A program made the translations under genes and the position numbers. Positions 1-29,636 of a DNA stretch of 64,000 nt are shown here, piece after piece; the first letter of the stretch is position 1, and the number at the start of each line of letters is the position of its first letter. This stretch comes from Dehalococcoidia bacterium. GTDB lineage: Bacteria; Chloroflexota; Dehalococcoidia; UBA6926. The notes below the pieces were generated by a model. The model did not search any database and had not been told where the DNA came from. It was given only the letters and a program-made list of their open reading frames with translations. Location: positions 128,001 to 192,000 of the forward strand of contig CAXXET010000007.1 of the NCBI GenBank assembly GCA_963666115.2. Direction: 5' to 3'.

Positions 1-1620
1 GTCCGCGTCTGGCTCGCGACAATCCTGACCACGTTCCCCGCCAACGCCAACATCGTCGGCGTCACCCAGGACGTGGCGGCGGGCCCCAAGCTCCAGTGGA
101 CGTTCCGCGAGGCGTACGCGCCGGGGCAGGACACCCTGACCGTCGGCCACCTGTGGGTCTGGACGGAGCGCAGCACGTGGAACCCCGTTTCCGGCTTCGG
201 TGACGTCTACAGCAGCGACGTGTGGCGCAACCTGGCCGATCCCGCCATGACGCGCCACCCCTTCACCGGCCTGCCCATCCCCATGCGCGCCGGTTACCAG
301 GTGGAGACGGCAGGCCCGGGCGGCAAGCTCTCCGTGCCGTCCACCGTCCAGCGTTGGGACGCGGACGCCGGGGAGTGGGCGAGCGTGGGCGATGGCGTGG
401 AGGCCACGTCCAAGGTCACTTTCGACTACAGCAAGTTCTTCCAGGCCCCCTGGCATCACGGCCAACAGATCACGATGGCTGACCTTGTCTATGACATCTA
501 CCAGACCTTTGACATGGTGTACGGGCCGGAGAAGTCCCAGGTCGAATTCGCCCTCGCAACAACCGCCAAGCCGCTGCTGGACACCGTCCGCGGCTTCCGC
601 GTGCTGGATGAGAACCGCATCGAGGTCTACGTCGATTACTGGCACTTCGTGGACGACTACATCGCGGAGTACGCCGTGCCCGGCGGCATGACCATGCCGT
701 GGGAGGTCCTCGCCGCGATGGACGACGTGGTATTCAACCAGCGCCGCGCCGCCTACAGCGACACCTCCGCCCAGCGGTTCGGCGTGCCGTGGCTCAGCCT
801 GGTGCAGGACCGTGACGCCCGCACCGTTGACCGCGCGCTTGGGCAATTCGAGCGCGACGGCTTTGTGCCCATGGCGGCGCTCACCATCGGAGGGCAGGCG
901 CTCGTCACGGAGCAGGAGGCCATGGAGCGCTACCGCGCCGCGCAGGCGTGGTTCGATGAGCAAGGCCTCATGGTCATCAGCAACGGGCCGTTCTACCTGG
1001 AGCGGTTCGATCCCCCCGCGCAGTTCGCCGAACTCAAGGCATTCCGCGATGAGAACTACCCCTTCAAGCCCGGCGATTGGCATTTCGGCGCGGCAGAGCC
1101 CATCAGCATTGAGACCGGAAGCCCCGGCAGCATCGTCATCGGCCAGGATTTCAGCGTCGGCTCAACGGTGAACGGCCCCGGTGAGCTGGGCGTCCGCTAC
1201 GTCTGGTCGGACCCCGCCACGGGCAACGTCGTCAAGAGCGGCGACGCGGAAATCGCGGAAAGCTTTCCCGTACAGGCCTTCGTCAACCTCTCCGCGTCGG
1301 AGACCGCCGCGCTCGTCCCCGGCCTCTACCGCCTCTCCATCACCGCCTACAGCGATCAACTCTCCACAGTCTCAGAACGCGTTTTGACGGTGGAGGCGTC
1401 CGCGACGGGCGATGGGACGGCGACGGGCGGAGCCCCGGACGACACCGCCACCACCACAAACCCCGATGATGCCACCGCCGACAGCGACGCCGACACCGGC
1501 GGCGGCTGCTTCGCAGGCGCCGCTACATCGGACCTGCTGCTGATCGGGGGACTTTTGCTGGGGCTGGTGGGGGTGCGTGTTAGGCGGAGGCAACTCGAAA
1601 ATGGAGAGGACGGTGAGTAG
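1..1620 (+). CDS. ABC transporter family-5 (peptide/oligosaccharide) substrate-binding protein, 5'-truncated, with C-terminal Thr/Asp linker, GGGC motif and TM anchor
   Basis: Frame open from base 1. Family-5 SBP-like motifs WHHGQQITMADLVY and ISNGPFYLERFDP. Ends DTGGGC-hydrophobic-RVRRR. Confidence 0.8.
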   Translation, partial: VRVWLATILTTFPANANIVGVTQDVAAGPKLQWTFREAYAPGQDTLTVGHLWVWTERSTWNPVSGFGDVYSSDVWRNLADPAMTRHPFTGLPIPMRAGYQVETAGPGGKLSVPSTVQRWDADAGEWASVGDGVEATSKVTFDYSKFFQAPWHHGQQITMADLVYDIYQTFDMVYGPEKSQVEFALATTAKPLLDTVRGFRVLDENRIEVYVDYWHFVDDYIAEYAVPGGMTMPWEVLAAMDDVVFNQRRAAYSDTSAQRFGVPWLSLVQDRDARTVDRALGQFERDGFVPMAALTIGGQALVTEQEAMERYRAAQAWFDEQGLMVISNGPFYLERFDPPAQFAELKAFRDENYPFKPGDWHFGAAEPISIETGSPGSIVIGQDFSVGSTVNGPGELGVRYVWSDPATGNVVKSGDAEIAESFPVQAFVNLSASETAALVPGLYRLSITAYSDQLSTVSERVLTVEASATGDGTATGGAPDDTATTTNPDDATADSDADTGGGCFAGAATSDLLLIGGLLLGLVGVRVRRRQLENGEDGE

Positions 1621-24300: not shown

Positions 24301-25443
24301 ATGAGCAAAACAGTAATGCTCCTGACGACGGTCGCCCTTCTCCTAACCGCCTGCGCCAACGGCGCCGCCCAACCAACGTCACCACCCCCCACAGCCCTGC
24401 CGCCCCCAACCCCCGCCGCCCCCAACCAGGACATGGACGTCGTAACAGTCCTCGAAAAAGACGCCATCCCCGCCATCCGCTCGCCGGAGTTCGTGGACGT
24501 TGACGCCGCCGAGTCGTGGATGAACCCCGATGAGCCGATCATCAGCGTCGAAATCGACGGCGACGCCCGCGCCTATCCAACCGCCATGCTCAGCCGCCAC
24601 GAGATTGTGAACGACACCGTGGGAGGCGCGCCGATTGCGGTGACGTGGTGACCCCTCTGCTACACGGCCATCGTGTATGGCCGAGAGGTGGACGGGCAGT
24701 TGCTGACCTTCGGCGTCTCCGGCAAGCTCATCCTCAACAACCTCGTCATGTTCGACGACCAGACGGACTCCGAGTGGAGCCAGGCATACGGCGCGGCCAT
24801 CTCCGGCCCCCTAGAGGGCGCGGAACTCGAACTGGTCGCATCGCGGCTAATGTCATGGGAGGCGTGGAAAAGCCTCTACCCGGACACCCTCGTGCTTGAC
24901 AAGCGAGGCCTCTACCGCCGAGACAACTACGACACGTACTACACGAACCCGCAGGCCGGAATCCTGGGCCGGAGCATCAATGACCGGAGGCTCGGACTAA
25001 AAGACCTCGTCCTCGGCATAGAAATCGGCGAGGCACAACGCGCCTACCCCTACGACGCCCTGGCCGAAACGCCGATAGTGAACGACACTCTCGCCAACCA
25101 CGAAATCGTAGTAATCCACGAACCGGACGCAGGCTTCGCCGCAGCCTACAGCCGCCGCCTAAACGATGCCGCCCACGCAATAGCCCAAGGCCCCTTCGGC
25201 ATGAACGCCCCAAAAAACCTGACCTTTGAGCAGGCCAACGCGGCTCAGTTGGGGAACGACCCAACAGTCTCCAGCCCCGTAATGCGAGACCGCGAAACAG
25301 CCTCAATCTGGAGCGCCTACACAGGCAAAGCAATCTCCGGCCCGCTCGAAGGCGCAACCCTAACCCAAATCCCGACCACCCCATCATTCTGGTTCGCCTG
25401 GGCAGACCTATTCCCGGATACGGGGGTGTGGGGAGAGGAGTAG
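24301..25443 (+). CDS. DUF3179 family selenolipoprotein (in-frame TGA at 24649-24651, W-U-P-L-C)
   Basis: ORFs 24301 and 24673 are in the same frame. KDAIPAI..RAYP..HEIVND..VTW*PLCYT..FGVSGKL..NLVMFD..WFAW. Lipobox LTAC. Confidence 0.9.
24654..24688 (+). promoter_or_regulatory. Putative bacterial SECIS element
   Basis: Lower stem CCTCT/AGAGG, upper stem CGGCCAT/ATGGCCG, loop CGTGT starting 20 nt after the TGA. Confidence 0.7.
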
Positions 25444-25541: not shown

Positions 25542-26240
25542 CTACCCCCTTAGCCGCACAGTAGTCTGCGTACCTTCCCCTCCCACTTCAAATCTGTCAG
25601 GGGCTGATCTGATGAGTTGCGTCAACTGCTTATGACCATAGTCGCTGGGCGTAAAGCCTTCCCTAAGGCGGCGCAGCGTAGTACCAACATCGGCCATGCG
25701 CGCCCAGCCATTATCCTTCGCTGTCGCCTCGATTGCCTGCCTCGTAAGTTCAATCCATCCCATCGAGGAAGGTTCCTCTTTGCGAGTCTCAGCCTTTTCC
25801 CCTGGCGCCAAGGTCTCCGTCACGACAAAAATGTCACATGCGCTCTTGAAAGCATCGGGGGTGTTATCTCGCCCAATGCCCATTGCAAACAAGCCCTGCT
25901 GACGAATTCGAGTTGCTAATCGAGTGAAATCGCTGTCGCTTGAGACGATACAGAACCCTTGCACGGACCCTCCATGCAGGATGTCCATGGCGTCGACTAT
26001 CAGGGCAATATCCGTCGAGTTCTTTCCCTTGACGGTGTTGAATTGCTGTACAGGCTGGAGCGCATGAAGATTGAGGACATCCTTCCAACTCTTCATGGTG
26101 GACCCCGCCCAATCCCCATAGACCCGCCGCGTCGTGACAGCCCCATGCTTGGCAGCCTCGGCTAGGATCTCCTCAATGATCGACGCTTGAGCATTGTCCC
26201 CGTCAATCAACACGGCAATCCGTCGCGATTCAGTAGTCAT
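25542..26240 (-). CDS. NYN domain protein with C-terminal OST-HTH/LOTUS domain
   Basis: IAVLIDGDN, RRVYGDW, GKNSTDIALIVDAMD, VSSDSDF; GWA..F.P.DYGHKQL. Confidence 0.92.
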   Translation of the reverse strand: MTTESRRIAVLIDGDNAQASIIEEILAEAAKHGAVTTRRVYGDWAGSTMKSWKDVLNLHALQPVQQFNTVKGKNSTDIALIVDAMDILHGGSVQGFCIVSSDSDFTRLATRIRQQGLFAMGIGRDNTPDAFKSACDIFVVTETLAPGEKAETRKEEPSSMGWIELTRQAIEATAKDNGWARMADVGTTLRRLREGFTPSDYGHKQLTQLIRSAPDRFEVGGEGTQTTVRLRG

Positions 26241-26280
26241 GCACCAGATTCTAGCTGATGGCCAACCTCTCCGCGAACAA

Positions 26281-27189
26281 TCACTGCGTCGCCCGGCCTC
26301 TCCCCGTCCCACCCCCCACCATATCCGCCACGGATGCCCCCAATGCGTCCGCTATCCGGGACAGCGCCCCGAACGATAGATTCTGCCTCCCGTTCTCAAC
26401 CAGGCTGATGTAGGTTCGATCCAGACCGCACGCCTCCGCCAGTTCCCTCTGGGTCATCCTCCGACGCGAGCGCATCGCGCTGATGGTCGACCCAAGCGCG
26501 CCGAGCTGCTGCTCCAAGCTCGGCTTGACGCTCCCAAGCCCCACAAGCCGCCGGCCCTCACTGACCGCCTCAGGAGCGGCGTGCGCTATCGCGTCGCAGC
26601 CCAGAGATGCCGCCGTCACGCTCTGCCCCGCCAAAGCCTGCCCGCCGAGGATGATCCGGGGCGCCGAATCTCCCAACGCTCGAATCTCATTGGACGCCCG
26701 CGTCACGCGCGGCAGGGAACCCGGTAGCGTGGCAGACAGCGCGACCAAATCGGCAGCGCGGTCCCGCGCGAAGCGCGCCAGATCCTCGCCCGGCGTCCCC
26801 ACCCCCAGGAAGTCCACGTCCCACCCGTCCATCGCAAAGAACTCCGCCACGAAACGCGCCCCGATGCTGTGCGGATCTCCCTCCGGCGGCGTCACCACAA
26901 CCCGCAGCCCATTGCCGGGGCCTGGCGTCCGCCTCCGGCTCAGCGCGTCCAGCACGCCGAGGGTGATCGTCGTCGCCAGGTGCTCCTGCGCAACGTTGAG
27001 CAGTCCGCTCCGCCACCGTTCGCCAATCCTGGCCTGTGAGGGCGCAAGCACGTCCAGGCAGATGGCCGCAGCGCCCGCCCCCCCGCTCAGGGCGTGGTCG
27101 ATCACCGAGTGCGCCAGCGCGGCCTGCCCGGCCACCAGGGCATCCAGGTATCTCTCCCGGGCCTCCGACAACTGCGTGTGCCCTTCCAC
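26281..27189 (-). CDS. Cobalamin-binding (CarH-type) domain fused to C-terminal XRE HTH regulator
   Basis: W-x9-EH (WRSGLLNVAQEH), GDPHSIG, LVALSAT, ILGG; C-terminal MTQRELAEACGLDRTYISLVENGRQNLS. Confidence 0.88.
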   Translation of the reverse strand: MEGHTQLSEARERYLDALVAGQAALAHSVIDHALSGGAGAAAICLDVLAPSQARIGERWRSGLLNVAQEHLATTITLGVLDALSRRRTPGPGNGLRVVVTPPEGDPHSIGARFVAEFFAMDGWDVDFLGVGTPGEDLARFARDRAADLVALSATLPGSLPRVTRASNEIRALGDSAPRIILGGQALAGQSVTAASLGCDAIAHAAPEAVSEGRRLVGLGSVKPSLEQQLGALGSTISAMRSRRRMTQRELAEACGLDRTYISLVENGRQNLSFGALSRIADALGASVADMVGGGTGRGRATQ

Positions 27190-28348: not shown

Positions 28349-29617
28349 CTACCCACCCGCCACCCCATCCAGCGCCTCCCGCCACTCGCGGGTAGACAGG
28401 CCGTTAGGGTATCCCTTCCGGTACGTGATGACACCGTTGCCGTTGATGACGACTGCAGACGCGTGAGTATTGATGCCGTATTCATTCGATAAATGCACAT
28501 CGAACGCCGCCATGCCCCAGGGATACCCCTGTCTCTCGGCGTATCGGCGGATACTGCTCTCATCATCGATCGGACTGGCAGCGATGGCGAGAACGGCAAC
28601 CCGGTCCGAGTAATCTCCGTATAGATCCTTGAGGCTCTGCAAATCAGAGCGACATACCGGTCAAGTGCTTGAGAAGAAGTACAAAACGACGGGCTGGTTG
28701 GCCTGCTTGAAGTCCGTCAGCGAGCGGGTTACGCCATTCGTCGTCGTCACCGTGAAGTCCGGCGCGGACTGCCCCACACGGTTGCCAACGGGCGGAGCGG
28801 GTTGGGCGGGCGGCTGGGTGGGCGGGATGGGCACAGGCGTGTCCGTAGGCTGCGTTGACGGCGTTGTGCCTGACAGCGTGGGAGGCGTCGGTTCGGCGGT
28901 TCCGGGCAGCAACGCAGGCGGAGCGACGGTTGGTGGCGTGAGCGTCGGCGGCGCTTGGGGGGTCCCCGTCACGGTCGCATTGGTATCCGGCTGCGAGGCG
29001 CTTGTATCGACCTGCGTGCCTGTCAACGGGAGCGTCGTCACCGCGTCAAGCGCCTCCCGCCACTGCTCAGCATTGTGGCTTCTCCCCGCCGCCCGGAACG
29101 TGATGACGCCATCGCCGTCGATGATGACCTTGGAGGGCTGGCGGATGACGCCAAAGGCCGTCTGCACGTCTCCGTGATAAATTGCCATTTCCCAGGGGTA
29201 TCCCTGTTGTGCGGCATATCTGTCTATCGTTTCCGCAGTCTCGTCCGGGTCGACGTCAACCGCGATGAACGCCACCTCATCCTGGTAGTCGGGGTAAACA
29301 CTCTTGGCAGTCTGCAACTCAGACCGGCATGACGGTCACCAGCTTGCGAAGAAATAGACGACGACAGGCTGGTTCGCCTGCTTGAAATCCGTCAACGACC
29401 GCGTCACGCCGGATGTGGTCGTCACGGAGAAGTCCGGCGCGAGATCGCCGACACGGTTGCCGACCTCCGGCGCGGCCTCCGCCGGCGTCCCGTTTTCCGG
29501 TGAGGTTGGTGCCGTCTCCTCCGTGCCCGTGCCGCACGCGGCGGCCAGCATCATCAGCGCCGCAACCAGCAGCGCGCCAACCAGGACGCCCGCCCACATG
29601 TGCAGTCGTATGCTCAC
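28349..29617 (-). CDS. Lipoprotein with two tandem TlpA/AhpC-TSA thioredoxin-fold domains, each with a UxxC motif (TGA at 29336-29338 and 28661-28663)
   Basis: Three in-frame ORFs separated only by TGA codons: FFASW*PSCRSEL and FFSST*PVCRSDL. Duplicated VGNRVG..APDF.VTTT.GVTRSLTDFKQANQPVV.YFF. GGAGG RBS, lipobox AAAC, real stop TAG. Confidence 0.88.
28634..28650 (-). promoter_or_regulatory. Putative SECIS hairpin for the second UGA
   Basis: GCTCTG-ATTTG-CAGAGC, loop starting 16 nt after the TGA. Confidence 0.65.
29309..29325 (-). promoter_or_regulatory. Putative SECIS hairpin for the first UGA
   Basis: GGTCTG-AGTTG-CAGACT, loop starting 16 nt after the TGA. Confidence 0.65.
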
Positions 29618-29636
29618 AAGTCGCCTTCCTCCGCGT

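Follow-up and report, generated by a model that had tools for sequence, protein, structure and literature searches.

A 422-codon gene with two in-frame TGA codons very likely encodes one exported, probably lipid-anchored protein with two selenocysteine (Sec)-containing domains of the ResA/TlpA type, formed by the in-frame fusion of two adjacent genes, here called A and B. It lies on the minus strand (29617-28349, GTG start to TAG stop, with TGA translated as Sec, U) of the window, the whole 64,000-nucleotide stretch of Dehalococcoidia DNA that was analysed. The parts of this protein are known, since UxxC selenoproteins of family PF00578 and bacterial proteins with several Sec residues have been described; the fusion is its unusual feature.

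The fused gene and its signals

The original prediction was that three open reading frames (29336-29617, 28661-29317, and 28349-28642) are really one, broken by two TGA codons, and the frame list and translation bear this out. The two codons are U94 (29338-29336) and U319 (28663-28661), and, as was also claimed, each opens a TlpA-type U-x-x-C motif: FFASW-U-PS-C-RSEL at U94 and FFSST-U-PV-C-RSDL at U319. The ribosome-binding site, the lipobox-like end of the signal peptide, the Pro/Thr-rich linker, and the TAG stop can all be read directly from the sequence. The gene has indeed been missed by standard annotation, which splits it in three, and its database relatives are cut in the same way: P0005, P0007, P0074, and P0115 are fragments that end or start at a TGA. 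The features, all on the minus strand, are as follows.

29624..29632, minus: Shine-Dalgarno-like GGAGG (29632-29628) and AAGG (29627-29624), read directly, with a putative function
29534..29617, minus: GTG start, hydrophobic signal peptide, and lipobox-like LAAA-C28, from ancestral gene A
29033..29470, minus: domain 1 (gene A), ResA/TlpA-type thioredoxin fold, W-U94-P-S-C97 (Pfam AhpC-TSA, residues 56-174)
29336..29338, minus: TGA 1, predicted Sec94 (TGA in 22 of 22 genus genomes, Cys in homologues)
29309..29325, minus: SECIS-like hairpin 1, stem of 6-7 bp, loop AGUUG, 16 nt after the UGA (covariation)
29030..29035, minus: fusion junction; the DNA resembles that of congeners up to 29033, where relatives have the final codon ahead of the gene A stop
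28790..29032, minus: Pro/Thr-rich stalk of about 80 residues (196-276), a shortened remnant of the gene B stalk
28352..28789, minus: domain 2 (gene B catalytic domain), ResA-like fold, T-U319-P-V-C322 (AlphaFold2, Foldseek)
28661..28663, minus: TGA 2, predicted Sec319 (TGA at 21 of 21 B sites)
28634..28650, minus: SECIS-like hairpin 2, 6-bp stem, loop AUUUG, which deviates from the consensus loop (covariation)
28349..28351, minus: TAG stop, abutting the stop of a convergent alpha/beta-hydrolase gene

The Shine-Dalgarno-like stretch sits between the stop of the upstream hydantoinase-B gene (29639-29637) and the GTG start; a promoter/terminator scan found nothing adjoining the gene start. The -3 residue of the lipobox-like motif is Ala, and Leu, Val, or Ile is usual at this position. 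The Cys is kept in congeners, and a lipobox-like motif (by a loose regular expression) precedes site 1 in all 22 genus loci. As judged from its sequence, the gene probably codes for a lipoprotein-type exported chain with its lipid anchor at C28.

Sec machinery and conservation of the UGA codons

The source genome (2.07 Mb in 9 contigs, 100% complete by markers, 63% G+C) contains selA, selB, selC, and selD. Matches to the selA, selB, and selD profiles exceed their cut-offs, with selD having an in-frame TGA of its own, and the selC product, a tRNA-Sec with anticodon TCA, scores 68 bits against a cut-off of 47. selA is above its cut-off in all 22 genomes of the genus.

Conservation of the codons is complete within the genus: TGA followed by x-x-Cys is present at 43 of 43 homologous sites in 22 genomes (22 at site 1 and 21 B sites). 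Seven further UGA sites are found in 6 of 8 loci from other families. In addition, homologues have Cys opposite both TGAs, as expected. Among the best 150 phmmer hits in the whole library, Cys occupies the U position in 193 of 200 alignments spanning site 1, and in a 108-row alignment of domain 2, with U read as C, both Cys columns are invariant. Together, the complete machinery, the conservation of TGA, the covarying hairpins described below, and the Cys homologues indicate that both TGAs most likely encode Sec. The 422-residue chain would then need two recoding events, as originally proposed.

The 14 named relatives are metagenome-assembled genomes (MAGs) of Dehalococcoidia or Chloroflexota, and 4 of the 7 sequencing runs listed carry the label sponge metagenome; the listed runs include no RNA data, which is neutral with regard to expression. 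Two Dehalococcoidia, with 49 and 46 genes, are among the ten richest selenoproteomes in BSepDB, according to the available portion of PMC13326102.

SECIS-like hairpins

Each UGA is followed by a hairpin whose 6-bp stem lies at +14..19/+25..30. The predicted pairing probability in a 150-nt context is 0.81-0.82 for hairpin 1, and the value for hairpin 2 is 0.97-0.99. When the 34 distinct sequences are aligned, 99% of 204 stem cells are paired, with 23 two-sided changes. No shuffle among 500 matches this covariation, a count that is not a probability because the sequences are related, and slid registers pair at 34-54%. RNAalifold recovers the same stem unaided. Pair 18/26 is U-A in 25 of the 43 sites and C-G in 18, with no exception, even though the 3' change replaces Gln with Arg. 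The Leu codon in the loop is TTG at 42 of 43 sites, compared with 8.5% TTG among Leu codons in a rough training set.

Of 62,865 genomic TGA triplets, 30 are followed by a perfect 6-bp stem in this register, both Sec sites included, a figure that flatters the hairpins because the register was derived from these two sites. Single-sequence folding z-scores over 60 nt are weak (-1.48 and -0.64, not significant), and a generic hairpin follows 543 of the 4646 open-context TGAs in the genome. Thus, the case is carried by covariation among related, non-independent sequences. An Rfam scan of the 64-kb window returned 2 tRNAs and no match to a SECIS model.

Published constraints on bacterial SECIS elements (bSECIS) are a loop of 3-9 nt with G in one of its first two positions, a stem of 4-16 bp, a spacing of 16-37 nt, and a minimum free energy of at most -7.5 (available text of PMC13188914). 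Site 1, with its AGUUG loop, 16-nt spacing, and -7.9 kcal/mol, lies within all of them. At site 2 the stem, spacing, and energy (-7.7 to -8.8) also lie within these limits, and the stem covaries; in the AUUUG loop, G is missing from the first two positions, except when the closing G-C pair opens, which shortens the spacing to 15 nt.

Two ResA/TlpA-type domains

Pfam AhpC-TSA matches the protein in two stretches (132 bits against a cut-off of 26, E 1.4e-38), and AhpC-TSA, Redoxin, and Thioredoxin_8 each match twice within the 422 residues. An AlphaFold2 model of domain 2, built from the 108-row alignment, has a pLDDT of 95.9, and its best Foldseek match is the ResA structure 4nmu (TM 0.86, rmsd 1.5). 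AlphaFold2 applied to the complete chain from its single sequence gave a poor model (pLDDT 43.6), which was discarded. Among the best 25 of 31 NCBIfam matches, none reaches the cut-off of a ResA, CcmG, or TlpA equivalog (ResA 95 versus 170 bits, DsbE 90 versus 123). The protein is therefore not classed as ResA, DsbE, or TlpA proper.

The two domains differ at the position of the cis-Pro. In domain 1 this position is Q160-P161, and QP is found in 19 of 22 A domains; in domain 2 it is H385-A386, and HA is found in 14 of 21 B domains. His at this position appears in 1 of 187 other alignments, and that one is itself a B fragment. The cis-Pro probably helps to bind substrate and may prevent metal binding (available portion of PMC2757866). 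Given this likely role and its replacement in domain 2, the second domain may have a different job from the first. The His suggests a possible analogy with Sco-like proteins; a literature search for a Sco-like His/cis-Pro arrangement found none.

A sub-clade of 14 B domains (L013-L019, L021-L027) has Trp changed to Thr before the Sec, His-Ala at the cis-Pro position, and AUUUG in place of the AGUUG loop, all together. Since the 14 form one clade, the three changes may be a single event.

Origin by fusion of genes A and B

The original prediction took the two domains for an internal duplication, which fits how the sequence looks; as an account of its origin, this is not upheld. In 20 of 21 congeners, domains 1 and 2 are two separate single-Sec lipoprotein genes, A and B; in the twenty-first, G016, only gene A is seen. 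In the congeners, gene A ends 102-106 codons downstream of its UGA. After a further 20-25 nt comes gene B, with its own signal peptide, lipobox-like Cys, and a longer Pro/Thr stalk. The Sec sites are 883-1080 nt apart in the split congeners versus 675 in the fused gene. By alignment, about 200 nt are missing at the junction (the stop, the 20-25 nt between the genes, and the start, signal, and lipobox of gene B), and the alignment with 6 congeners shows another deletion, of about 54 nt, within the stalk. The stalk segment PPALLPGTAEPT is shared with congeners. The fused junction is present in 1 of the 22 genus genomes.

In a protein tree of all 43 domains (midpoint-rooted for drawing only), domain 1 is nested among the A genes and domain 2 among the B genes, and a tree uniting domains 1 and 2 in one clade is rejected by the AU test (p-AU 5.9e-58). 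Thus, the duplication is older than the lineage and, as these sequences are read, the fusion is a derived state of the source lineage. The direction from split to fused follows from the nesting of the fused row among unfused rows in both clades. The comparison places the loss of gene A's stop and of gene B's signal peptide, by which the genes were joined, in this lineage only.

No other two-TGA frame with tandem domains is among the listed matches of a class-wide search (401 genomes, a strict first look, 33 matches at 1e-19), and both loci found in a metagenome scan are split. A homologue search with residues 50-200, restricted to proteins of 232-739 aa, had no match at 1e-15 and is uninformative. 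Another family of the class possesses, at L065 (G334), a neighboring pair of single-Sec UxxC lipoprotein genes of its own, which are not fused.

In DNA, the two domains resemble each other far more in their 5' parts (29390-29470 and 28700-28790) than in their 3' parts. This likeness may reflect gene conversion between the paralogues.

Proposed decoding and alternative explanations

As in standard bacterial recoding, SelB with Sec-tRNA-Sec would bind the hairpin 16 nt after each UGA and insert Sec twice. The signal from gene A would direct export of the chain, and C28 would be lipidated. The fold suggests that selenol/thiol-disulfide exchange would then take place at each U-x-x-C site, beyond the membrane, and that the Pro/Thr stalk would hold domain 2 at a greater distance. 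Failed recoding would yield by-products of 93 and 318 residues. In E. coli, recoding is 30-40% per site and depends on selenium (available text of PMC4513850); at that efficiency, full-length protein would result from 9-16% of initiations.

Such losses, multiplied over two recoding steps (extrapolating from the available text of PMC4513850), are one point in favor of a different reading of the real fusion, in which UGA2 is seldom recoded and domain 2 is mostly a passenger, so that a one-Sec product with a tail is made and the deletion is merely tolerated. This is improbable. The AUUUG loop that departs from the bSECIS consensus would fit it, but the same loop is common to 14 of 21 B domains, and in the 13 of these that are free-standing genes the stem still covaries, and canonical SECIS elements account for 87.4% of BSepDB entries, meaning that non-canonical ones are common. 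Domain 2 evolves faster (dN/dS against 8 congeners of 0.13-0.28, versus 0.07-0.10 for domain 1), and yet the unfused congeners have values close to those of the fused gene (0.05 for A and 0.19 for B); dN/dS of the fused gene is dominated by its history before the fusion. The occurrence of the fusion in a single genome of the genus also suits a passenger. Strain differences speak against a passenger. The 33 in-gene differences listed for the contigs described below touch 31 codons, of which 18 change synonymously, 13 non-synonymously, and none to a stop; in domain 2 the counts are 13, 8, and 0. This stop count covers the listed differences, beyond which there are 86 more, and each contig covers part of the gene; the X2 or X3 strains could still have a stop outside the listed differences.

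Still less probable is a programmed, selenium-responsive switch, along the lines of the selenium-dependent isoform ratio raised in the original prediction, in which termination at UGA2 gives a selected, functional isoform. It would draw on the selenium dependence of recoding in E. coli (available text of PMC4513850) and on the fact that a stop at UGA2 leaves domain 1 intact. However, the architecture is confined to one lineage, and the presence of the junction in one genome gives no sign of an old, conserved regulatory design. In addition, the short form would end in 43 residues of domain 2 that cannot fold, and low selenium would be expected to block UGA1 first, so that both domains would be lost together. 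The product of a stop at UGA2, domain 1 with the stalk and a fragment of domain 2, is an ordinary by-product of incomplete recoding.

An assembly artefact, with a real genome that has two genes like its relatives, is suggested by the split state of 20 of 21 congeners, by the metagenome-type assembly, and by the similar 5' stretch in both domains. Contigs from 4 runs were aligned, and 3 of them, from three studies, cross the junction; X4 has no listed contig there, a gap that carries no weight either way. The X1 contig 28854-29069 crosses gap-free with 0 differences (as does 28630-28829 of X1 over TGA 2), although X1 may be the source sample. The X2 contig 28861-29193 and the X3 contig 28902-29110 also cross gap-free, differing at 7 of 333 and at 18 of about 209 letters, respectively, and therefore come from other strains. 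No indel or joint is listed in these three junction contigs. Moreover, the junction lies away from the shared repeat: there, the end of A is followed by the middle part of the B stalk. Consequently, an artefact is largely refuted, with very little probability left to it. There is equally little to recommend the view that the TGAs are true stops in a pseudogene or are read as Cys or Trp through a changed genetic code, for although Sec insertion is deduced from sequence, TGA is kept at every site with intact frames downstream, the TCA tRNA scores as tRNA-Sec and the only tRNA-Trp has a CCA anticodon, TGA ends 5 of the 11 neighboring genes examined and gene A itself in 2 congeners (TAG or TAA in the others), and the hairpin covaries.

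From the sequence comparisons taken together, this is very probably a real double-Sec gene that is translated as such.

Comparison with known selenoproteins and redoxins

Table 1 of PMC13188914, in its available form, lists Prx-like thiol:disulfide oxidoreductases (PF00578, UxxC/UxxU, 1-2 Sec) and Redoxin-family proteins (PF08534, UxxC). The fused gene belongs to the same Pfam families and shares with them the U-x-x-C motif, a UGA with an in-gene hairpin, and Cys homologues. It differs in having two full domains with one Sec each, whereas the two-Sec form of PF00578 is presumably a single UxxU site. A tandem UxxC/UxxC redoxin has no row among the selenoproteins listed in the available part of that source.

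The original prediction also held that two recoding events are uncommon in bacteria. This is overstated, since bacterial proteins with 2-3 Sec have been published (available text of PMC13188914): the double or triple selenoproteins HUGP/GUXX-star fusion (NF041212), methyltransferase/UXPK-star (NF047649), MbdU (NF045648), ArsM/DUF2284 (NF041536), and ArsM/AhpD (NF041537, 3 Sec). As far as that source describes them, they resemble the fused gene in having more than one recoded UGA per frame, including in domain fusions; they have other folds, and the fused gene is distinguished by an unfused ancestral state that survives in 20 congeners. None of these five models is among the best 25 of 31 NCBIfam matches.

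ResA, CcmG, TlpA, and pneumococcal Etrx (4nmu, 1su9, 2yp6) resemble the protein in the fold of domain 2, in sequence matches, in a membrane anchor (predicted in the fused protein) and stalk, and in the Pro that domain 1 keeps at the cis-Pro position. They differ in that the fused gene would have Sec for the nucleophilic Cys, lacks that Pro in domain 2, is far from reaching the family cut-offs, and has no DsbD/CcdA partner found in its genome with the models PF02683 and PF13386.

Several redoxin domains per chain are not unusual (two or more in 44 of the top 150 hits), and tandem TlpA-like proteins such as P0004 are similar in this respect but have Cys in both domains. P0006, P0153, and P0154 represent an independent tandem redoxin with Cys in domain 1, unlike the fused gene. 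In P0154, a signal and a lipobox-like Cys precede a WCPIC domain, and beyond a Pro-rich linker lies the second domain, which is cut at FFAATW; its cluster probably has one Sec in domain 2. The source of P0006 was not found among the 301 genomes searched.

Fusions of Trx-fold selenoproteins with other domains were reported in the GOS paper (available portion of PMC2398784). No published description of a tandem UxxC/UxxC redoxin was found in the available portions of the literature searched, including PMC1976440, PMC12013277, and bioRxiv 10.1101/2022.07.06.499078; a supplement or BSepDB may still list such a protein.

Redox partners and genomic neighborhood

In none of the 22 genus genomes does the DsbD/CcdA model PF02683 exceed its cut-off, and PF13386 has no match in the source genome. 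By these two models, the textbook reductant for exported ResA/TlpA proteins is not found. Cytochrome c assembly genes are present elsewhere in the source genome; no cytochrome c maturation or Msr gene adjoins the fused gene. Its neighbors are hydantoinase A/B upstream, the convergent hydrolase, and DUF3179. Hydantoinase B and the hydrolase are retained in 15 of 15 congener loci and DUF3179 in 13 of 15; these syntenic neighbors do not name a substrate.

The DUF3179 lipoprotein-like gene (24301-25443, plus strand), 3 kb away, has an in-frame TGA at W-U117-P-L-C followed by a hairpin with the loop CGUGU. It is a candidate second selenoprotein of a listed family, DUF3179 UxxC/T being among the selenoproteins in the available text of PMC13188914. 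An NYN/OST-HTH gene and a B12-binding HTH regulator lie at 25542-27189 (minus strand), near the tRNA-proximal region. Each is found within 3 kb in 1 of 15 congener loci, and so they are probably inserted or variable.

De novo scans of the genome for Sec codons gave 315 candidates, too noisy for a count of the selenoproteome. Of 7 further candidates tested, 5 have a Pfam match on read-through: C7:268998+, C3:23697-, C3:9354-, C4:384268+, and C6:445152+ (L107, L109-L111, L113), with glutaredoxin-like, GrdB, DsbA-like, rhodanese, and AhpC-TSA as their families and, in most cases, a hairpin after the UGA. C4:417645+ (L108) and C4:504246+ (L112) have a UGA and a hairpin, and the 70 residues compared with Pfam gave no match. 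Many congeners have a third redoxin, more distant, whose frame contains one TGA (e.g. G011:C51:59404-59766). It is not among the two matches listed for the source genome and may be the AhpC-TSA Sec gene at C6:445152.

Implications

Since UxxC redoxin chemistry and multi-Sec bacterial proteins are already catalogued, the impact of this fusion is moderate. Its value lies in the presence, within one genus, of the same two Sec genes in both fused and separate form, a natural experiment on the cost of a second UGA to a bacterial mRNA and on the origins of multi-Sec proteins. The 43 aligned hairpins also define, with support from covariation, a SECIS for Chloroflexota, and one of its loop variants departs from the published consensus. 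A more far-reaching reading, though an unlikely one, is that of a young double-selenoprotein fusion with two functionally different Sec sites, in which domain 1, with its cis-Pro, would exchange disulfides, and domain 2, which lost the cis-Pro and acquired a neighboring His, may bind metal through Sec, Cys, and His. The protein would act outside the cell, with no recognisable DsbD/CcdA. If this were true, the protein would represent a new extracytoplasmic selenium-based redox or metal-handling relay in Dehalococcoidia, possibly together with the syntenic DUF3179 selenoprotein.
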